A DNA stretch of 46,667 bases, taken from sequence record NC_054651.1. One strand, 5' to 3'. Origin of the DNA: Escherichia phage C1. Below the pieces are notes generated by a model that saw only the letters and a list, made by a program, of their open reading frames with translations, was not told the DNA's origin and did no database searches. Shown here in pieces: positions 7,028-44,291 of the stretch. A program made the translations under genes and the position numbers. How positions within the stretch are numbered: the first letter of the stretch is position 1; every line of letters starts with the position of its first letter.

Positions 7028-9939
7028 TATTCTGTTGCTCTCCTGTTGGTATTGTAATTTCTAGAAATGGCCTGCCCTATCGGGCCATTTTCCGAAATGT
7101 CACTAACAATAGTCTCAATTGTCACGCTGCCGTCACCATTATCTCTTGCGGTTGATGAGGTTGTTGCCCCGCTGCTGGTATTGATGACGTTATTATAAAT
7201 AACGATACCACTACCACCTCCAGTCAGGTCTTTGTTGCTGATAACGCGACCACTATCCCCCGGGATCATGTACTGATGACCGTTTGATGCCTGGAATATC
7301 TCAGGGAGGTTATTCTCGCCCACCCTGTACATCGAGCCTTCCTGCGCTGGTCCGCCGTTTTTCAGCGCGCCAGCAATGGATAGTGTTTTTGCAAGACCAA
7401 CTGTTGCTGACATCCCGGCCATTGCTGGTGCTGAGTTTGCCCCAGCCGTTGCCAGTGAGGTCATGGCTGCTGCTGGAGCCATTGCTGCTGATATTGCCGC
7501 TGCCTGAGCTATTGTCGCTGCAGAAGCCGCGCTCATTCCTGCAGCACCCATGATAGCTGATTTGGCCCAGTCTATACCCATTTGCACAAACGCATTGATA
7601 ACACTGGACAGGATGTTTGAGCCAATTGATCGCAGAGCATCTGATACAGACATTGAGCCAGTAAGGATGCCAGTAAGCGCATTTCCAGCGGTCTGCCCGA
7701 AAGCATCAAACGCCGCCGCAGCCGCTTGCGTTGCTGCGCTTTGCTGACTCCACTCCTGCCACATTGCTTCAAGTCGCTGTTGGCGGTATTGCGCTTCAAT
7801 TGCTGCGCGAGTCTGCTCAATCTCCGTGATTTTTTGTGGATATGCTGCGGCGTATGCTTCAAGGTCAGCCATATCCTTCTGATAGGATGTTTCTACAGCA
7901 AACATTGGTGAGGTTTGTGATTTTAGTGCGCTGTATCCTTTTACGGCATCTATTCTTTTCTTTTCCGCCGCAACCTGTTCCTTCAGTGCATTCTTCTGGT
8001 CCCAAATCTTCGCCGCGTACTCACCAGCCAGTTTTATTTGTTCCTGAGTTGCCGCCTTGCCAAGAGATTGCTGAGCGTTGAGAATGGCTTGCTCGCGTGA
8101 TAGTTCTTTTGTGGATTCTGCCTGACCAGCAAGTAGAGCCTCCTGCCGCAGTTTATTTAATTTCTGCTGGATGGTTTCCTGTTGATTTAGTTCAGTCTTA
8201 AGCTGGTTATTTGCATTGCGCTCATCCCTTGCCGCTTGTGCATTTTTCTCCTGCTGACGATATGTCTCAAGTCTGACATTGTAATATTCACGAAACGCAG
8301 CGGTATTCTGCTTTAATCCCTGAGCTTCAGCATCACGCCACGCCTGAGCTTTTAGCTTTTCATCGCCAGTTTGTTTCTCAATAAATAATGTCTGGCGAGC
8401 GGTTTGTAGCGCCTTATCCTGACTTGATGTTAAGGAGTCTGTCATCTCCTTGAGAGCTTTCAGGCGCATTGTTGCGTCAGTTGTTGTGGTAGCAATTTCC
8501 AGCAAGCGAGCTGCATATTCTCTTGCCTTTTGCGCGCCAGATGACTGTCCCTCGCCTACCTTTTGCAGAGTAACGATTAACTCATTAAGTTTTTCATTGC
8601 TCGGATTTTTGGCGATTTCAGAGAGTTGCTTGGCAAATTCAAAAGCCTGCTGGTCGGTCAAATCAAAGCGACTTGCCAGAGCGCCTACTGTGGCAATCAT
8701 GTTATTCATCGTGGATTGCCCGGCAAGTCCGGCTGATGCTGCCTGCTTCATCGCTTCACCGAAATCATTGGTGGTGATATTCAGCATGGACAGGTAATCA
8801 TTAAACGATTTAACGCTGACATTAGCTCCTGACAATGAAGCAAAAAGACGATCGCCAAAGGTTACGAACTCACTGGATGCTTTTGATACTTCCTTAGATA
8901 CCTTTGAGAGCGCCGCTGAAAGTTCAAGTTGCGCTTGCTGGCGCATCAGTGTTGCAACGGTTGTGTTTGCCCTTGCTAATGCCGCAAACTTATCTGAGTA
9001 TGCTGCCACGCCATTGCTTGAAACGCTGATAACCTGATCCATTGCAGAAATGGCATCTTTCATGGCATCAATGGCATTTTTGCCGTTACTCAGCGAGGCC
9101 ATCAGTGAACCAGCAATAACTGTCGCAATTGTCAATACTGCGCCAGCTACCGGACTGAATACAGATGCAAGTTGTGAACCTTGCTGACTGAATGCAACAA
9201 GCGCAGACTGACCACTTTGAACCTGAACAATAAAGTCCTGAACCTGATAGCCACCCTGTTGCAGCGCGTTCCTGAAACCGTTTGTGGATTTGCCAGCCGA
9301 CTCTGTACCGTTTTTCATGTCGTACAGGCGACCAGTCAGCTCAGCAATCTTGGCCTTTTGTGCGTCAGTTGCGCCATCTCCAGCTCTGAGTTGTGCTGCA
9401 AGAATGGCTGCGCTTCGTGCGCCGTTTTCCATTTGCTCTTCAAGAATTGCAACCTGATTTCCGAGACTTTCAATTAATCTTTCTGTGCCAGATATGCTTG
9501 CGCCAGCGCCGCCAGTAGATGTACCAAGCTCACGAATAGCAGTCGTAACAGCATTAATTGAGGTTTCCAGTCTGCCAGTAGAAACAGCGGCTTGTTGCTG
9601 TTGCTGCTGCATCATGGCGAGTTGCTGATTTAGAGCGTCGATAACCTGATTCGCTGACTCAGCAGACTGCGATGTCGATTTGACAGCACTTGCCGCGCCA
9701 TCACTGGAGGCCGCCATCTTGCTAAGTGTGGCATCAATGCTTTTAACCACGGAGACAAGGGAAGAGAATGCCTTTCCGGTTGAATCAGCCTGACCATCAA
9801 GTTTATTTAAATTCTTCGTGGAGCCACTTACAGCTGAGTCAAATTTTGATAACTCTGATTCCGCTGAGCTTGCTCCTGCTTTAAGCCCGGATACATCCAT
9901 CCCGACTTCATAGACAATTCCGCCGACTTCTTCAGCCAT
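7027..9939 (-). CDS. tail tape measure protein
   Basis: 970 aa, Ala/Gln/Ser-rich with long predicted coiled-coil stretches and poly-Q run, hydrophobic C-terminal region; located between chaperone-like gene and minor tail genes. Confidence 0.85.
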
Positions 9940-15689: not shown

Positions 15690-15718
15690 TTGACGTAGAT
15701 TAGTGTGGCGTTTATAGT
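15690..15718 (+). promoter_or_regulatory. sigma70-type promoter TTGACG-17-TATAGT for ParB/MTase/clamp cassette
   Basis: Hexamers with 17 bp spacer; contains TGACGTAGATT and a second TGACGTAGAAAC copy just downstream. Confidence 0.55.
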
Positions 15719-15936: not shown

Positions 15937-16746
15937 ATGAAAACACTAAGCAAAATCTATTCAGACAAAGAAACGCGCAACGGTATCGCTGTCAATAAAA
16001 CCTATCTCGTGCCAGTTGAGCAAATCTATCTTGAGCCTGGATACAACATCCGCGAAGCCGATGAACAGCATGTGGAATATTTCGCGCAGTGCTGGGAATC
16101 AGGTCAGCCACTGCCAGCATTAACAGTTATTCCTGACGAGAAGGGAATCCGCATTCTTGATGGTCAACATCGCTACCTCGGCGCATTGCGTGCCATTGAG
16201 CGTGGCGCACCAATCGTTCGTATTGAGTGTAAGGATTTCACTGGCGATGAGGCGGACAAAATTGCCTTCATGGTGTCATCCAGTCAGGGGAAGCAACTTG
16301 ACCCGTTTGAGCGCGCAAAGGCTTACACACGACTGAAGGGTTTTGGCTGGACGAATGAAGAAATAGCCAAGAAGGTAGGTCGTTCAGTATCTGACGTGCA
16401 GATGCATCTGTCACTGGGTGATGTGCCTGCGGAAGTAAAAGCGCGAATCAGTGCCGGGCAAATCAGCTATGCAAATGCCGTAGCAGTAACTCGCGAGCAT
16501 GGCGATGATGCGGTAAAAGTTATCGACGAGGCAGTCGAAGAAGCTAAAGCACAAGGCAAAGACAAGGTCACAGCCAAAGTGCTGAAGTCGAAAAAGATTA
16601 AGCCAATAGACCGCCTGATTGAGTTATTGAAGCCAGCAGACCATGTGATTCTTCCTGCTGGTCATGTAGTGGCAGAGGATGAGGAGTTTATCCAGATTCC
16701 TGTTGCTGATATTCACGAGGTTATGGCAATTCTGGAGAAGATGTGA
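15937..16746 (+). CDS. ParB-like nuclease domain protein
   Basis: 269 aa; ParB/Srx N-terminal domain pattern including ILDGQHRYLGALRA; stop overlaps downstream start. Confidence 0.7.
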   Translation: MKTLSKIYSDKETRNGIAVNKTYLVPVEQIYLEPGYNIREADEQHVEYFAQCWESGQPLPALTVIPDEKGIRILDGQHRYLGALRAIERGAPIVRIECKDFTGDEADKIAFMVSSSQGKQLDPFERAKAYTRLKGFGWTNEEIAKKVGRSVSDVQMHLSLGDVPAEVKARISAGQISYANAVAVTREHGDDAVKVIDEAVEEAKAQGKDKVTAKVLKSKKIKPIDRLIELLKPADHVILPAGHVVAEDEEFIQIPVADIHEVMAILEKM

Positions 16747-17626
16747 TGATTATAAATGAAGACGTGAAATTAATTCATGGCGATTGCCTGGAAGTCATGA
16801 AGTCTATTCCTTACAGTAGCGTTGATTTGATTTTGTGCGATTTGCCGTATGGGACGACACGCAACAAGTGGGATAGCGTTATAGAACTGCAGTCGATGTG
16901 GGCCGAGTACAAGCGCATTTCCCGTGGCGCTATCGTGCTCACAGCGCAGGCGCCATTCGACAAGATTCTTGGAGCATCAAATATCGGCATGTTTCGATAT
17001 GAGTGGATCTGGCAAAAAACGAAAGCAACAGGTCACTTGAACGCAAAGATTCAGCCAATGAAAAACCATGAAAACGTCCTTGTTTTTACAAGTCACTACC
17101 AGTGTACAACCCACAGGGACTGGTAAGAAAAGCAGTTCCAACCATAAGAAAGGGTGGAAACAACGGTACGAACTACGGCAAATCAGACAAGGACGCGATT
17201 CAGGAATTTGAGAACTACCCGCGCTCAATCATTGCGATACCAAGCGAAGGCAGAACCATTCACCCAACCCAGAAGCCAGTCGCGCTGATGGAGTACCTTG
17301 TCCGCACCTACACCAACGAAGGCGACGTGGTTATGGATAACTGCATGGGTAGTGGCACGACCGGAGTCGCCTGCGTGAACACTGGTCGTCGTTTCATCGG
17401 AATAGAAAAAGATGATGAGTATTTTGAAATAGCAAAAAAAAAGGATTTTAGGATGAACGCCGAACAATTCATCGAAAAACAACTCCGCGCCAAGCTGCCT
17501 GACATCGACCAGATGGCAGTTGATGCGGCGATTCAGTATTACAAGCGCAATCAGAGCGCAAAGAAGGGTGGCATTTTTGAAGAATGCCTGAAGGTTGCAA
17601 GGCAACACATGATTAAGGTGAAGTGA
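16743..17626 (+). pseudogene. N6-adenine DNA methyltransferase (Dam-like, beta class), split by a frameshift near 17072..17126
   Basis: ORF 16743..17126 carries LILCDLPYG (motif IV-like) and ends ...[19 protein letters not shown]; overlapping ORF in another frame (17102..17626) carries HPTQKP and [12 protein letters not shown] (motif I, AdoMet binding). Confidence 0.7.
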
Positions 17627-18162
17627 TGAAACTAAAAATAAGCAAACTATTACTTGAATCAGCATTAATCTTTCAGGCTCGCAACGATGTGCGTTACTAC
17701 CTGAATGGAATCTGCTTTATGACTAATGGTCGCATTGCGTCAACTGACGGTCATCGCGCATTCATTGGTGGAAGCCATGACAATAAGCTGACAGAAAATG
17801 TGATCATCAAGATTGGCAAATCTCCAACAAAACGCTATGAGTACGCCATTATTGATACCAAGTCGAAAATTGCGACGTATCATGATGAAGCTGGCGCGAT
17901 GGTTGGTGCTGGTATCTGCGAAGAGATTGATGGCCGATTTCCTGATATTGATCGCGTAATACCAAATGAAACGAAAGCAGCAGAGGAAATCGGCTTTAAT
18001 GCTGGTTATCTCGTGGATATCGAGAAAGTGGCGAAGCTGTTTAATCCTAAATTCTGTGGCGTTAAGTTTGAATTGAATGGGAATACAAATGCCGCCGCTT
18101 GCTGCCTTAATGCGCCATCTGGCGAGACTGCGAAGATTGTTGTTATGCCTATGCGACTATAG
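17623..18162 (+). CDS. truncated DnaN-like sliding-clamp protein (beta-clamp homolog fragment)
   Basis: 179 aa; blocks [37 protein letters not shown] and C-terminal VVMPMRL match remembered E. coli DnaN blocks; about half the length of DnaN. Confidence 0.7.
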
Positions 18163-18166
18163 CAAT

Positions 18167-18196
18167 AAAAAGCCCCGGAAGGGGCTTTTCTTTTAT
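18167..18196. terminator. bidirectional rho-independent terminator
   Basis: AGCCCC-ggaa-GGGGCT hairpin with A-run upstream and T-run downstream between convergent genes. Confidence 0.7.
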
Positions 18197-36775: not shown

Positions 36776-37426
36776 TCACCCTATTTCACATATCATATAA
36801 ACTTTCCTCATTAGGCCGTCAAGCAGCATTGGGTGTATAGAATCACATAACCCCTTCATTTGCTTTGCTTGCTTTATCTTTTCATTCTTCCATGCCTGAT
36901 GCGCTTCAATCACCGAACTGAAATAGCCTAAAAATACTGTACGACCATTGCCATCACCTATGTGCGCCTGATAAGCGCAAGAACACTTATTAAATGACAC
37001 ACCTATAGGCAAGTCACCTCTCGAGGCATTCCTTGCTGTCACGAAGTTGTTTAGGTGTGGAGGCACGTAAACACATGCTTCAGGTGAGTAAGTCAAATTA
37101 CCAGGAATCAATATATCCTTATCAAGGTGCCACCCTTCAACGTAATGGTTCTTCCACCACAAATTAAAGTTTGAAAACAGCAGCCACTCATTACAACAAG
37201 TAACATGCTCATAGGTTTTGTGTTGTTTTTTGTATTCATCATCAAAACACCTCCTGAGCATTTGATACCATTGGCTATATCCATAATGTTGCACCTTTTT
37301 ACCATCAACTTTCATCGCCACACCGAAGCCACAATCATTAACTCCAACACCAAATATTGGCTTTCTTTTTCCTTTCTTTATATCTCTGTTAAGCTCCATT
37401 TTTATGGAGAGATTTTTCTTTTGCAT
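36776..37426 (-). CDS. homing endonuclease with C-terminal AP2-like DNA-binding domain (putative)
   Basis: 216 aa; C-terminal block GVSFNKCSCAYQAHIGDGNGRTVFLGYFSSVIEAHQAW fits AP2 pattern; free-standing gene. Confidence 0.5.
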   Translation of the reverse strand: MQKKNLSIKMELNRDIKKGKRKPIFGVGVNDCGFGVAMKVDGKKVQHYGYSQWYQMLRRCFDDEYKKQHKTYEHVTCCNEWLLFSNFNLWWKNHYVEGWHLDKDILIPGNLTYSPEACVYVPPHLNNFVTARNASRGDLPIGVSFNKCSCAYQAHIGDGNGRTVFLGYFSSVIEAHQAWKNEKIKQAKQMKGLCDSIHPMLLDGLMRKVYMICEIG

Positions 37427-38749: not shown

Positions 38750-38968
38750 GTGAAACTTGACAAATACGGCAAAAAGAATGCAGCTCTTTCTGGATTATCG
38801 GTGGTTTCAGTAGGGGAGACTGTGATGATTGACTCGAAGAGATTTGGGGGCATTGCAAGCCTGAGGAACGCATTAAACTATTTTATGCGCAGGAATGAAG
38901 GCATGAAATTCTCAACAAAGGTTGGATACCCTGACAAAGACATGGTTTACGTAAAAAGGATTTCATGA
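38750..38968 (+). CDS. hypothetical small protein, first gene right of origin-like region
   Basis: GTG after GGAGGA SD inside track ORF 38729..38968. Confidence 0.35.
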   Translation: MKLDKYGKKNAALSGLSVVSVGETVMIDSKRFGGIASLRNALNYFMRRNEGMKFSTKVGYPDKDMVYVKRIS

Positions 38969-40521
38969 TGATCACAGCGCAAGACATCTTCAACGAAGCA
39001 AGGGAATTAAAAGTATCTCCTGCTCGCGTCGCCTTCCATCATGGCATGACGCCAAGCTCAAACATGTGGCTTGACATTAAGGAAGGCAAGGAGCGTGATG
39101 TAACGTACTCAGAAACAGAACTGACCAGTGAGCACCGGACTGATTTACTGTCTCGTTATGCAATCGCTGCAGCTCGTGCTGTTCAGTTCCCAATAAATAC
39201 ATCGTTCATGCATTTACTTGGGTGCGTTGCCAGCGCAATGACGAGAAACTTTAGCGTTGAGTATTACCATTCAGAGCTTCCAGTTTCTCTTTACGTGGTT
39301 ACTTCGCAGCCTCCATCAGCAGGGAAAACCGCTATCAACTCAATGCATATGAATCCGGTGAAGATTGAATACGACAACCTTTCCAAAAAGATGGAAAAGC
39401 AAATCATAAAAATAAATCTTCGCATCGAAGAGTTGATGAAGGCATACAAAGAGGCCAGCAATCAGAATGCAAAGGCACTAATCGGAGATGATATTGCTCG
39501 CGAAAAGGAGAAGCTGGAGGAGCTTTATACGATCACATATCCACTGACGGACGCAACGCCGGAGGCTGTTCAGCATCAGGCAATCCATGAAGGTGGTTTT
39601 TTTAATCTGATAAGTGACGAGGCAAGCGTTCTTAACACATGTCTTGGCCTCTCTTACGGAAAGGAAGGTGGAAAGGCAAACGCCGAAGTCATCCTGAAGG
39701 GCTGGGATGGCGGATTTATTGGTTCTGCTCGTGTTGGTCGTGGCGTTTCATCTGGTTATGTGCTTGGAAACATAAGTGTGATTGCTCAGGATGAAAGTAT
39801 TGATGCCATTCTTGCCGCTGGCGACAGGGGGAACGGGCTTTCTGAACGTTTCCTCATGTTGCGAGAGCAATCAATGCTTGGCTATCGCGAACACTGGGAC
39901 ATGGTTAATGATTGCCCTGTAAGCAAGCCAATGCCAGACAGCTTGAGGTCGGAATATGCAAGATTTATACATAATGTTGTGTCAGCAGAAAAAACAAAAC
40001 TGACGCTTCACAATGACTCAGCAAGAATGATCGGCCTGTTACGAAATCAGTGGGAGAAAAACTTCCTTCCCGGCGGTAAGTGGGACCACGTTCTTCTTCG
40101 TGGCGCGATGGGTAAAGCTGATAAGCAAATAATCCGTCTGGCAGCAATATTTCACGCTGCTGAAAACTGGTGCGATGGAGGAAAGCGTTCAAAGATTATC
40201 GGTGAAAATGAGATTAGTCGCGCCATCAGTGTTTATGACGCACTGACAAAAACATTCACTGATGCTGTTGAATCAAATGGGTATGCTGGTGAGCGTTCTG
40301 AATTTGATGTTGTTGCCGAAAAGCTACGCTCTGCCGCTCAGAAAGGAAAAACAAACGTAACGGTGAAGTGGCTTTATGATTCACTTAAAAACGTGCGACC
40401 ATTCAAAGGGATACCTAAAATTTATGACCGACTCAGATCAAGCGTATTGCCATCACTTGAAGAGGATGGTTACTGCGTTTTTATTGGTAATACTGTCCAC
40501 ATTAATCCGAGGTTGAAATGA
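38965..40521 (+). CDS. large hypothetical protein, putative replication-associated (DUF3987-like?)
   Basis: 518 aa; degenerate P-loop-like SQPPSAGKT; adjacent to origin-like region; function not resolved. Confidence 0.4.
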   Translation: MMITAQDIFNEARELKVSPARVAFHHGMTPSSNMWLDIKEGKERDVTYSETELTSEHRTDLLSRYAIAAARAVQFPINTSFMHLLGCVASAMTRNFSVEYYHSELPVSLYVVTSQPPSAGKTAINSMHMNPVKIEYDNLSKKMEKQIIKINLRIEELMKAYKEASNQNAKALIGDDIAREKEKLEELYTITYPLTDATPEAVQHQAIHEGGFFNLISDEASVLNTCLGLSYGKEGGKANAEVILKGWDGGFIGSARVGRGVSSGYVLGNISVIAQDESIDAILAAGDRGNGLSERFLMLREQSMLGYREHWDMVNDCPVSKPMPDSLRSEYARFIHNVVSAEKTKLTLHNDSARMIGLLRNQWEKNFLPGGKWDHVLLRGAMGKADKQIIRLAAIFHAAENWCDGGKRSKIIGENEISRAISVYDALTKTFTDAVESNGYAGERSEFDVVAEKLRSAAQKGKTNVTVKWLYDSLKNVRPFKGIPKIYDRLRSSVLPSLEEDGYCVFIGNTVHINPRLK

Positions 40522-41052: not shown

Positions 41053-42006
41053 TTATCTTCTAACTGACATTTTCTCTATCAACTCGCCAGCGTCATAAAT
41101 TTTTCTCCTGATTCTCTTTGCCATCCTGATAGTGTCAGCATCATCAGGAAGCATCACCGGAAGTCCTGCGTTTTCCGCAGCGCAAAGTTCGTTAAATTTA
41201 TAGTTAACTATGCAACGCAATATCGCCTTCATCTCATCGCTAACAGAACGCACCACTTCCCACATGTTTTCCGGCGACCAGCAGCACCAGACATGAGCTC
41301 CAGTGAAGTAATGGCACTTCCACGCGTCGGCATAATCAGATACCAGGTAAATGAACTTTCCGTTATCTTCTCCGATTGGGCTTATCGCCCCGCGCGTGAG
41401 CTTTCCGTTGATAGCTGAGTCTTTGTTGTATCCAGCACGGAAAAACGTTCTGAATGAATCACCATCCATGCCAATGAACGCCACGTTACACGGCTTCATT
41501 GTGTCAGCGCGTATCATCTCAACCGCAATAAGCTCTCCAGATTTAGCTCTGACGACGTTAACGTCGCAACCAATACCATTTATCAACGTCCACTCATTCA
41601 TCGCGACACGCGTCGTTTTAGCCATGATTGCGGCAACTTCCTGCTCGGTGATGAAGTCGTCATTATGATTTATCTTCGGTAACTCCTTCCTGATTGCTTC
41701 CAGTTTTTCACGCGGGTGCATATTCAGGAATCCACCAAGTGCCTCAAGTGCTTCGGGAAAGCTCATGCCAGAGAGTTTCATCAGCCAGGTGATTCCGCTG
41801 CCGTTTCCACACTGGTTACAGATGGCGCCGCCGTCACCTTTGTAGTCCAGGTTATCATCGAATCGAAATCTGTCGCGACCGCCGCAACTTGGGCATGGCT
41901 GGTGCTTACCATTGAAAACTCTGCTATTCACACTGACGATAGACATGATGGCGGCCTGCCAGTTCCCAAGCATTTTTGGCTCAATGTCTTTCCAGTCGTA
42001 TCTCAT
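41053..42006 (-). CDS. DNA primase (zinc-ribbon + primase core)
   Basis: Track ORF 41053..42117; likely start MRYDWKD; zinc-ribbon CPSCGGRDRFRFDD...CNQCGNGSG typical of phage primases. Confidence 0.65.
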   Translation of the reverse strand: MRYDWKDIEPKMLGNWQAAIMSIVSVNSRVFNGKHQPCPSCGGRDRFRFDDNLDYKGDGGAICNQCGNGSGITWLMKLSGMSFPEALEALGGFLNMHPREKLEAIRKELPKINHNDDFITEQEVAAIMAKTTRVAMNEWTLINGIGCDVNVVRAKSGELIAVEMIRADTMKPCNVAFIGMDGDSFRTFFRAGYNKDSAINGKLTRGAISPIGEDNGKFIYLVSDYADAWKCHYFTGAHVWCCWSPENMWEVVRSVSDEMKAILRCIVNYKFNELCAAENAGLPVMLPDDADTIRMAKRIRRKIYDAGELIEKMSVRR

Positions 42007-42008
42007 AA

Positions 42009-42060
42009 ATTGACCCTTGATTGTTGGTGTAGATTGAGTATAAGCTAACTGACGTAGAAA
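42009..42060 (+). promoter_or_regulatory. promoter region for rightward replication/recombination operon with GTGTAGATTG and TGACGTAGAAAC motifs
   Basis: TTGATT-16-TATAAG candidate; same motif pair as at 15690..15735. Confidence 0.45.
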
Positions 42061-42081
42061 CATCAACAAAAGGATATAGCA

Positions 42082-42345
42082 GTGTTCCTTGATAGCATTT
42101 TTAAGAGGATTTTTCATGGCAAGCCAATCCCTGTTGCCTTCGGATACCCGCCACGAAGCAACACATGGTTAACCATATACAGAAGACAGAGAACTGGAGA
42201 ATGGATTTTTGAGTGGGATGATTTGTTTGCCGATGAGAGGCCAGAAGATTATCTATGGAATCTTAGTTATATGTATTTTTATAACGGAATAGATGATGAA
42301 ACAAAGAAACAAGCAATTGAACACCTTGGCGCGAGGATTTTGTGA
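42082..42345 (+). CDS. hypothetical protein
   Basis: 87 aa ORF, GTG start after AAGGAT. Confidence 0.35.
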   Translation: MFLDSIFKRIFHGKPIPVAFGYPPRSNTWLTIYRRQRTGEWIFEWDDLFADERPEDYLWNLSYMYFYNGIDDETKKQAIEHLGARIL

Positions 42346-44291
42346 TGCATAAAATCGACGCAATGATTGCGGAACTTGACATAGATAAATTGCGGTCAGT
42401 TGTTCATACAGGGGAAATTGAGCCACGACCATATCAGTGGCTGGTTTATGAAAAGACGGCTGAAGTTATCCGCAAGTTTGGCAAAGACCCGAAACCAAGT
42501 TTTGTGACTGCATCGGTAGGTGCGGGAAAGACCATTATGATTGCCATGATTGCGCGACGCTTTCAGGATATGGGGTGGGAAGGTCTTGTTATTGCCAGGC
42601 AGGGGGAAATTATTGAGCAGGATGCGGAAGAGCTGTGGAATCTGAGTGTTAAAAACTCACTTTTCAGCGCGTCTCTTGGCAGAAAATCAACGGCATACCC
42701 GCTTATTGCTGGTACTGAGGGAACAATAATAAATGGCCTTTTCGATAAGAAGGACGAGTCAGGTAATGTTCTTTCTAAAGGTGCGCTTTCCGATTTTTGC
42801 CCTCGCTATATCCTTATTGACGAATGCCACCAGATGAACTGGGAGGACGTGGTAAGCGAAAGTCCTGAAACGCAATATGGCGTAATAATGACTGAGCTTA
42901 ACCGCAGATGTAAAGCTAAATACGGACATGATGTCATTGTTATTGGATACACAGGTAGCCCGTTTCGTGGCACCGACTCGATTAAGGGTGCTTACTGGAA
43001 ACATGAAATAGTAAACATTGACACTAAATATCTTGTTGATATTGGGTTTCTTGTGCCTACGATTTTTGGCCTGCATGACATTGATGATTTGCATTACGAC
43101 CTGTCAGCATTTGAGGCGTCAGGAAGCGATGGAACGCAGGACTTCACTGCCGAGCAACTCAAGCAGATGCAAAAAGAAATCCTTGAGCAAGGGACACTCA
43201 CGCAGAAAATCATGCTCAAGGTTATGGAGCTGACAAAAAACAGAAATGGCGTATTGATCACATGCGCTGGCAAGAAGCACTGTCAGGAGGCGGCAAAATA
43301 TTTACCTGAAGGAAGTTATGCGATCGTAACTGAAGATATGGGTATGAAAGCCAGACGCAAGGCATTAAAGGATGCATACACTGGCAAGATTAAATATGTT
43401 TTCCAGATTGGTTGCTTGACGACAGGCGTCAATATCCCACTCTGGGATACAAGCGTCATATTACGAAAAATAATGTCACTCACTCTTCTTGTGCAGCTGC
43501 TTGGTCGCGGGATGCGCCTGCTGAAGAAAGAGCAAATTGATGCAGGGTATCATAAAGAGGACCATCTGGTTCTTGACTTCTCTGGCACGATGTTTGAGCT
43601 TGGTCAGCTATATGCAGACCCAATTCTGGAAGAAGCCGAAGCGCAACGTTCAAAACGCAGTGGTGAACAGGTTCCGTGTCCTAAGTGCGGAACAATGAAC
43701 AGCCCATATGCGCGTCGCTGCATTGGCAAAGATGCATTGTCGCCAGATGGTAGATGCGAGGAGTTTTTCAGTTATATTCGTTGCGGTTTCGATAAGCACG
43801 GCATCCGTATTTTTGATGATGGTTGCGGTACTAAAAACGACCCAACGGCGCGTTATTGCCGACATTGCGATCACGTTTTGCGCGACCCGAATGCGGCACT
43901 TAATGAGCGTGCGTATACCGATAATGAGTGGGCTGATGTTATGGATTTCAAAGTCCAGTTAACGAAGGATGGAGAAGGTATTTTGTATCGCTACTGGATT
44001 AATCGTTGTGATGGGAAAGAGGGATGGGCTAACGAAGTTTTCTACCCCTATGGCGGCGCAACTCACATGAAAAACATGTTTAAGGCAAAAGCGGTCTTTC
44101 CTCACCTTGATGATAAGTCAATGGCGGGTAAAATCCTGAAGTGCCAGAACGCCAAGCAGTTCATGATGTATGCGGGATTGATTAAAGCGCCAAAACGCAT
44201 CACACATCGTATTAACGATAAAGGTCGTGACATAATCCACAGAAAAGATTTTGCAGGAGAGAATAGTGAAAAAGCGATTCAAGCAGCATGA
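42342..44291 (+). CDS. superfamily-2 DNA helicase (DExH box) with C-terminal zinc-ribbon region
   Basis: 649 aa; Walker A ASVGAGKT, DECH box (LIDECHQ), motif VI-like QLLGRGMR, C-terminal CPKC...C...C cluster. Confidence 0.8.
   Translation: MMHKIDAMIAELDIDKLRSVVHTGEIEPRPYQWLVYEKTAEVIRKFGKDPKPSFVTASVGAGKTIMIAMIARRFQDMGWEGLVIARQGEIIEQDAEELWNLSVKNSLFSASLGRKSTAYPLIAGTEGTIINGLFDKKDESGNVLSKGALSDFCPRYILIDECHQMNWEDVVSESPETQYGVIMTELNRRCKAKYGHDVIVIGYTGSPFRGTDSIKGAYWKHEIVNIDTKYLVDIGFLVPTIFGLHDIDDLHYDLSAFEASGSDGTQDFTAEQLKQMQKEILEQGTLTQKIMLKVMELTKNRNGVLITCAGKKHCQEAAKYLPEGSYAIVTEDMGMKARRKALKDAYTGKIKYVFQIGCLTTGVNIPLWDTSVILRKIMSLTLLVQLLGRGMRLLKKEQIDAGYHKEDHLVLDFSGTMFELGQLYADPILEEAEAQRSKRSGEQVPCPKCGTMNSPYARRCIGKDALSPDGRCEEFFSYIRCGFDKHGIRIFDDGCGTKNDPTARYCRHCDHVLRDPNAALNERAYTDNEWADVMDFKVQLTKDGEGILYRYWINRCDGKEGWANEVFYPYGGATHMKNMFKAKAVFPHLDDKSMAGKILKCQNAKQFMMYAGLIKAPKRITHRINDKGRDIIHRKDFAGENSEKAIQAA

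Follow-up and report, generated by a model that had tools for sequence, protein, structure and literature searches.

A short phage relative of the beta sliding clamp is predicted to keep the client pocket and to have lost the ring

What could a phage gain from half of a sliding clamp? The question is raised by a gene in the genome of Escherichia phage C1 (sequence record NC_054651.1, here called S192), analysed as one window of 46,667 nucleotides, in which a first-pass annotation had noticed an open reading frame (ORF) on the plus strand at 17623-18162 and taken it for a half-size homologue of DnaN, the bacterial beta sliding clamp. The window is a reverse-complemented and rotated form of the S192 GenBank record ON239132.1 (genus Deseoctovirus), so that record position equals 32938 minus window position. 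We refer to the product as the mini-clamp, and its residues are numbered here in the 179-aa form that begins at a GTG codon. Judged from its sequence, this protein lacks the defining architecture of the beta clamp but keeps the pocket through which beta holds its clients, and the gene appears to be a working one that many phages carry among their early or replication genes.

A phmmer search against all PDB chains returned the beta clamps of Enterobacter (E=3e-13) and E. coli (E=1.6e-12), and a profile hidden Markov model built from 130 members of the mini-clamp family scored 110 bits on E. coli DnaN, results that bear out the proposed homology. Five blocks of DnaN occur in the S192 protein in the DnaN order, namely DVRYYLNG (residues 22-29), TDGHR (41-45), two blocks of 12 residues each (103-114 and 122-133) and the C-terminal VVMPMRL (173-179). 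The corresponding motifs lie at 150-157, 172-176, 238-249, 316-327 and 360-366 of the E. coli K-12 dnaN product, against which both the order of the blocks and the E. coli motifs that the first-pass annotation had quoted were confirmed. The general clamp models detect the same relationship, but with scores under their cut-offs: 37.6 bits for TIGR00663 (curated cut-off 137.65), 17.9 bits for PF02767 and 15.6 bits for PF02768 (cut-off 27 for both). The model of the DnaN N-terminal domain (PF00712) had no match in the mini-clamp. By contrast with these cut-off scores, phrog_3007 (PHROG 3007) matches the protein over its full length (E=1.9e-62, residues 2-179 on profile positions 1-186 of 190), and by this profile comparison the S192 mini-clamp is an ordinary member of PHROG 3007.

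The alignments locate precisely what has been kept and what has gone. HMMER places residues 8-116 on DnaN 136-251 and residues 119-179 on DnaN 313-366; a semi-global alignment takes the same path, with a single large gap across DnaN ~250-311, and coverage of DnaN is limited to ~129-250 and 313-366. Domain I (DnaN 1-~124) is absent, as the first-pass annotation had stated. Its further claim that most of domain III was missing went too far, since only the first half of that domain (about DnaN 251-312) is lost; on the other hand, helix alpha2 of domain II (DnaN ~197-208) is also gone, and a short 'GKSPTKR' loop stands in its place. The second, beta-alpha-beta-beta-beta half of domain III is retained with its C-terminus and joined directly through the normal linker between domains II and III, which runs straight into the equivalent of DnaN ~313.

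An AlphaFold2 model of the mini-clamp, built on an alignment of 139 sequences, reached a pLDDT of 96.7 and a pTM of 0.91. Its N-terminal part comprises a strand (3-7), a helix (8-17) and the strands 30-32, 38-41, 45-49 and 60-64; no helix follows the last of these, and the chain continues with strands 74-78, 83-87 and 93-102, the DGRFPD..RVIP linker, a helix (127-140) and the final strands that lead to the C-terminus. Within residues 122-179 the layout is one strand, the helix 127-140 and then three strands. The helices 8-17 and 127-140 are the only two long ones in the whole model. When the model was compared with the PDB using Foldseek, all top matches were beta clamps (E about 3e-8), and the retained pieces would therefore keep the mutual arrangement that they have in beta. 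The monomer fold check suggested by the first-pass annotation thus favours a DNA-clamp fold, as predicted by the model. Predicted structures of other phage members match the S192 model at TM 0.8-0.9, while PDB sequence and structure searches found no solved structure of a short family member.

The clearest indication of what has been preserved comes from the clamp-binding-motif (CBM) pocket. According to a 2024 review (PMC11139829), subsite I of this pocket in E. coli beta is formed by R152, L155, T172, G174, H175, R176, L177, P242, R246, V247, V360 and M362, and subsite II by H175, N320, Y323, V344, M362, P363, M364 and R365. All of them fall within DnaN 152-177, 242-247 and 320-365, precisely the stretches that the mini-clamp retains. 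Among the 18 distinct pocket residues 17 could be mapped, and 16 of the 17 are identical to those of E. coli beta in S192, the sole change being L177 to A46. In a sample of 130 relatives, each less than 60% identical to the S192 protein, pocket positions carried a mean information of 3.2 bits against 1.5 bits for the rest (Mann-Whitney p=2.5e-8). Pocket residues make up 11 of the 16 most conserved positions, and the other top positions mostly adjoin the pocket (for example D150, Y154 and G157); the equivalent of P242 is invariant across the family. At the level of sequence, this evidence supports the CBM pocket as the selected function of the mini-clamp.

The elements that make beta a ring show the opposite behaviour. 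In the beta dimer, I78 and F106 pack on I272 and L273, while K74 and R96 form ion pairs with E298 and E300 (PMC11139829). Every one of these interface residues falls in a segment that the mini-clamp lacks, for K74, I78, R96 and F106 belong to domain I, and I272, L273, E298 and E300 to the missing first half of domain III; because domain I and DnaN 251-312 are absent, I78, F106, I272 and L273 have no counterpart at all. A closed ring has 12 inner helices, six per protomer, of which the modelled mini-clamp keeps two and loses four. Alignment and model agree in this respect, and by both the protein appears unable to form the canonical beta ring.

Could such a reduced protein be the remnant of a decaying gene? 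Comparison of S192 with nine relatives gave dN/dS values of 0.05-0.12 for the mini-clamp, which is a working gene under purifying selection; this selection, together with the existence of a large family of full-length members, argues against decay. As for the start codon, the 179-aa product described by the first-pass annotation corresponds to a real ORF from the GTG at 17623, but a 178-aa product from the ATG at 17626 is likelier, because this ATG is the start given in the GenBank record of S192, 93% of the homologues begin at the corresponding Met, a Shine-Dalgarno-like AAGGTGA precedes it, and it overlaps the stop codon of the upstream gene in TGATGA. In an 86% identical relative (L022, 8001-8534), the ORF call splits the mini-clamp into pieces of 80 and 98 aa, possibly a disrupted copy or an assembly error.

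The family is large. An exhaustive search of representative sequences returned 1910 clusters at E<=1e-3 and 193 at E<=1e-10, nearly all of 170-215 aa, and full-length DnaNs enter its results only from about E=1e-13. With tblastn the family was found in 281 phage records, with hosts that include Salmonella, Escherichia, Klebsiella, Vibrio, Proteus and Burkholderia. The lambdoid-type mini-clamp gene had no blastn match in the E. coli genomes searched. The labels attached to these genes are in conflict. The S192 record calls the gene 'DNA polymerase', many GenBank records have 'DNA polymerase III beta subunit', gp15 of Bcep781 is annotated as 'DNA Pol III b subunit fragment', and RefSeq phage records (e.g. 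NC_054636.1, NC_016566.1) say 'RusA-like Holliday junction resolvase', after the label of PHROG 3007. Short phage 'Pol III beta' genes are thus already known, both from annotation and as PHROG 3007, and our literature search turned up no work on the function or structure of this short beta-like family. The present analysis adds a precise account of the deletions and shows that the pocket has been selectively preserved, that all ring-forming elements have been lost and that the gene keeps a conserved setting among early or replication genes.

That setting takes several forms. In relatives of S192 that are 57-63% identical, the order is ParB, mini-clamp, superfamily 2 (SF2) helicase and a homologue of p151, and in S192 the SF2 helicase and p151 belong to a replication and recombination module at 42.3-44.7 kb. 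In relatives L041 and L045 the mini-clamp is immediately followed by the SF2 helicase homologue, which in L070 adjoins it on the opposite strand. A large group of lambdoid temperate phages (45-59% identical) shows the arrangement cI | cro, cII, mini-clamp, O-like initiator and then either a DnaB-type helicase or lambda P, as in Hafnia phage yong1 (L085, 4684-7272, where the mini-clamp is gp27) and in L047-L068. In some lambdoid carriers a DnaC-like loader is also seen after the mini-clamp and the O-like initiator. Lambda itself has no gene at the mini-clamp position between cII and O. More distant members, 29-31% identical and annotated as hypothetical, occur in prophages integrated in large plasmids, where the early-left operon holds them between repressor and xis/int (L086, Salmonella pLG26p2, 8995-9561; L087, Klebsiella IncFIB plasmid, 8995-9558). 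We had considered that these plasmid hits might belong to the leading region of conjugative plasmids, an idea that was dropped when they proved to be integrated prophages. Overall, the mini-clamp gene is always early and often heads the replication module.

Shigella phage EP23 (genus Dhillonvirus) offers a further arrangement. Here the immediate same-strand neighbour of the mini-clamp encodes an Nmad5-domain protein (L003, 5080-6438), and the pair lies within the head-gene region in the opposite orientation, as does the mini-clamp of S192 and of Bcep781. A single K-to-E change in this Nmad5-domain gene is reported to allow Dhillonvirus phages to escape the Tmn defence system (PMC11846954). A general link of the family to DNA modification, which the ParB and methylase genes of S192 and the Nmad5 gene of EP23 might have suggested, was rejected, since the lambdoid and plasmid-prophage contexts differ.

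In S192 the mini-clamp closes a small operon whose unit is convergent with the capsid genes (Table 1). The two methylase ORFs match consecutive parts of phrog_67 (positions 120-243 and 244-342), which indicates, from sequence comparison, a frameshift near 17102-17126, which may reflect an error in sequencing, a pseudogene or a programmed shift. The methylase DNA had no near match in any other of 50,697 phage records, and the gene is therefore regarded as an insert specific to S192. The small phrog_4439 gene that follows shares the reading frame of the 3' methylase fragment, from which no stop codon separates it, and is conserved in the closest relatives only; its product is a possible partner protein of the mini-clamp. 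Elsewhere the genome encodes a DUF3987 helicase, primase, SF2 helicase, exonuclease, Erf, SSB and endonuclease VII. No DNA polymerase gene was found in the S192 genome, the 'DNA polymerase' of the GenBank record being the mini-clamp itself, and the statement of the first-pass annotation that the phage has primase, helicase and SSB but no polymerase holds.

Table 1. Positions in the S192 window of the mini-clamp gene, its retained segments and the surrounding features
Feature	Coordinates	Strand	Remarks
Mini beta-clamp coding sequence	17626..18162	+	178 aa from ATG 17626; stop TAG 18160-18162; homologue of DnaN
Mini-clamp residues 22-45 (DVRYYLNG...TDGHR)	17686..17757	+	Equivalent to DnaN 150-176, first half of domain II; pocket residues R152, L155, T172, G174, H175, R176
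Mini-clamp residues 103-114	17929..17964	+	Equivalent to DnaN 238-249, linker of domains II and III; pocket residues P242, R246, V247
Mini-clamp residues 122-179	17986..18159	+	Equivalent to DnaN 316-366, second half of domain III; ends MPMRL; pocket residues N320, Y323, V360, M362, P363, M364, R365
Sigma-70-like promoter candidate TTGACG-17-TATAGT	15690..15718	+	Head of operon; consensus match only
ParB-like protein	15937..16746	+	First large operon gene; conserved upstream neighbour of the mini-clamp in S192-like phages
DNA methyltransferase, frameshift-split	16743..17452	+	ORFs 16743..17126 and 17102..17626; S192-specific insert
Small upstream gene, phrog_4439	17453..17626	+	57 aa; overlaps mini-clamp start in TGATGA; translationally coupled
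Intrinsic-terminator-like hairpin and T-run	18168..18189	+	Directly after mini-clamp stop; between convergent transcription units
HNH endonuclease gene	36776..37426	-	phrog_953, E=2e-73; among small early genes; probably a homing endonuclease
DUF3987 / phrog_2373 helicase	38965..40521	+	S192 replication module
Primase with zinc ribbon	41053..42117	-	Context gene
SF2 helicase (ResIII/Helicase_C and zinc ribbons)	42342..44291	+	Homologue adjoins the mini-clamp in L041, L045 and L070

How might a pocket without a ring serve a phage? We tentatively favour the view that the mini-clamp is a ring-incompetent derivative of beta, reduced to the structural unit at the boundary of domains II and III that forms the CBM pocket. 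It would be expressed early, from an operon with a host-type promoter in S192 and from early or replication operons elsewhere, and its intact pocket would bind CBM-bearing proteins of the host replisome, the likeliest clients being the DNA polymerase III (Pol III) core (alpha, epsilon) and/or the delta subunit of the clamp loader. In this way the host replicase could be channelled to the replication of phage DNA, the mini-clamp acting as a soluble hub and not as a clamp that encircles DNA. Binding of CBM peptides by the pocket, the host origin of its clients and a net gain for phage replication are each inferred. Pocket conservation, ring loss, the early or replication context, the lack of a polymerase in S192 and the absence of CBM enrichment among phage proteins are what we cite in its support. 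With respect to the latter, CBM-like motifs occur in the 77 S192 proteins at chance level (10 pentameric against 7.9 expected, 5 hexameric against 4.4 expected), the strict form QL[SD]LF was found in none of the 77, and no terminal CBM was found on the polymerases or helicases of EP23 or Bcep781; since S192 proteins show no excess of such motifs and the phage polymerases no terminal CBM, the clients are probably host proteins. Monomeric beta binds delta with a dissociation constant of about 7.5 nM, compared with about 460 nM for the dimer, that is ~50-fold tighter (PMC11139829). The lambda small RNA PreS raises translation of host dnaN in support of lambda replication, and the clamp node is therefore limiting in lambdoid replication. 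The adaptor suggested in the first-pass annotation, one that recruits Pol III or clamp-binding proteins, thus gains real support from pocket conservation and gene location.

Several observations weigh against this proposal. EP23 and Bcep781 carry a mini-clamp together with a family A polymerase of their own, so the family cannot be taken as a mark of polymerase-less phages, and the argument that the first-pass annotation drew from the missing polymerase, although correct for S192, is weaker than it looks. Some prophages hold the gene in an early-left accessory region; given these locations and the family A polymerase carriers, the role of the mini-clamp need not be tied to recruitment of Pol III. 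In DnaN at large, too, conservation is highest in the pocket, and the relatives were gathered by similarity, which biases the conservation analysis to pocket motifs, even if the combination of exact retention with exact loss in the aligned sequences remains striking. No phage partner that would make the mini-clamp a bridge was identified in the motif scan of the S192 proteome and of the EP23 and Bcep781 polymerases and helicases. Moreover, if the pocket took up the CBM of Pol III alpha it would be in competition with the genuine clamp, possibly at a cost in processivity, and a purely recruiting role is therefore not self-evident.

The main rival reading is a soluble pocket that would draw host CBM proteins (delta or the clamp loader, Hda, Pol II/IV/V, MutS/MutL, ligase, Pol I) off host beta, to the benefit of the phage, by shutting down or deregulating host replication, regulatory inactivation of DnaA (RIDA), mismatch repair or translesion synthesis. 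The pocket evidence speaks for such a decoy as much as for a recruiting hub; the mini-clamp has no means of staying on DNA, delta is bound very tightly by monomeric beta, carriers with their own polymerase do not need Pol III, the gene occurs in accessory early-left prophage regions, and phage proteins that target the clamp are known in Twort Gp168 (PDB 7evp) and Mu MuC. Nevertheless, S192 and the lambdoid carriers rely on the host Pol III and clamp, so that a strong general decoy would harm the phage too, and the location between cII and an O-like initiator, beside helicases, suggests a positive role in replication; we consider the decoy less likely than the hub, though worth serious attention. 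A statement broad enough to span recruitment and titration, namely that a widespread class of soluble phage proteins mimics only the client pocket of the clamp, captures delta or the clamp loader, the Pol III core, Hda or repair polymerases, and so re-wires or disarms the host replisome without ever loading on DNA, seems possible to us, and we put it forward with reserve.

The mini-clamp could, alternatively, still hold a polymerase on DNA, either as a new non-canonical oligomeric ring or through a UL42-like basic face that binds DNA without encircling it. In favour of this reading, the family is mildly basic, with a median isoelectric point of 8.25 against 5.25 for beta and with K135 and K138 conserved, and clamp activity has been reported for the truncated E. 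coli product beta*. Its net charge, however, is only about +2, two inner helices per protomer remain, the canonical interface residues are all gone, monomeric beta cannot tether Pol III processively, and the family A polymerases of EP23 and Bcep781 showed no CBM-like terminus, all of which makes a processivity factor improbable. The phage-specific clamp of the first-pass annotation is likewise unlikely in the canonical sense, given the two channel-lining helices of six that are left. The same annotation had raised a dominant-negative action, in which a heterodimer with host beta would break the ring, as might come to mind for a truncated homologue of a homodimeric protein; yet both halves of the interface, in domain I and in DnaN 251-312, lie in the missing segments, and we regard such poisoning as very improbable. 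Even harder to credit are a RusA-like Holliday junction resolvase or a DNA polymerase, for which the PHROG 3007 label and the S192 record could be quoted, since no RusA or polymerase Pfam model matched the mini-clamp even at E<=10 and its structural neighbours are clamps only, without a RusA fold; a decaying gene fragment, in the face of strong purifying selection and a large full-length family, is of the same low order.

The pocket of the beta clamp is the central docking site of the replisome in bacteria and a validated antibiotic target. If the mini-clamp indeed acts through this pocket, it would represent a new route to the takeover or tuning of host replication, used by polymerase-less, lambdoid and other phages, and it would explain a gene that is mislabelled in hundreds of therapeutic-candidate phages of Salmonella, E. 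coli, Klebsiella and Vibrio. It could also provide a minimal monomeric pocket scaffold for the screening of clamp-binding peptides and inhibitors, and a mimic of this kind would be the protein-hub counterpart of the DNA-mimic proteins.

Set beside known systems, the mini-clamp differs from E. coli beta (DnaN; PDB 2POL, 1MMI), a protein of 366 aa in three domains, in its 178 aa and in the absence of domain I, of alpha2 of domain II and of the first half of domain III. A natural product that also lacks domain I is beta*, which, from the 1996 work of Skaliter and colleagues and of Paz-Elizur and colleagues, is said to be a UV-inducible 26 kDa product of an internal start in E. coli dnaN and reportedly acts as a clamp. 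Beta* has complete domains II and III, whereas the mini-clamp carries two further internal deletions; in the alignment the latter begins only a few residues from beta Met135, with phage K8 opposite beta K136. The engineered monomeric beta I272A/L273A resembles the mini-clamp in being unable to form a ring while its pocket is intact, and it is the best functional model for a pocket-only clamp. This variant keeps weak DNA binding and the roughly 50-fold tighter hold on delta, with no processive tethering of Pol III (PMC11139829), but it still has all three domains, while the mini-clamp is natural, much smaller and under selection in phages. The short 'DNA polymerase III beta subunit' proteins of other phages (PHROG 3007: Bcep781 gp15, EP23 p08, Hafnia phage yong1 gp27) belong to the same family and show no difference in kind. 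The herpesvirus factors UL42, UL44, PF-8 and BMRF1 combine two full clamp domains with a strongly basic face for DNA binding, and they attach to the C-terminus of their own polymerase; no sequence relationship of the mini-clamp to them was detectable. Finally, Twort Gp168, Mu MuC and lambda PreS are, like the mini-clamp, phage strategies directed at the beta-clamp node of the host, but whereas they bind or upregulate the host clamp, the mini-clamp would imitate the site at which that clamp receives its clients.

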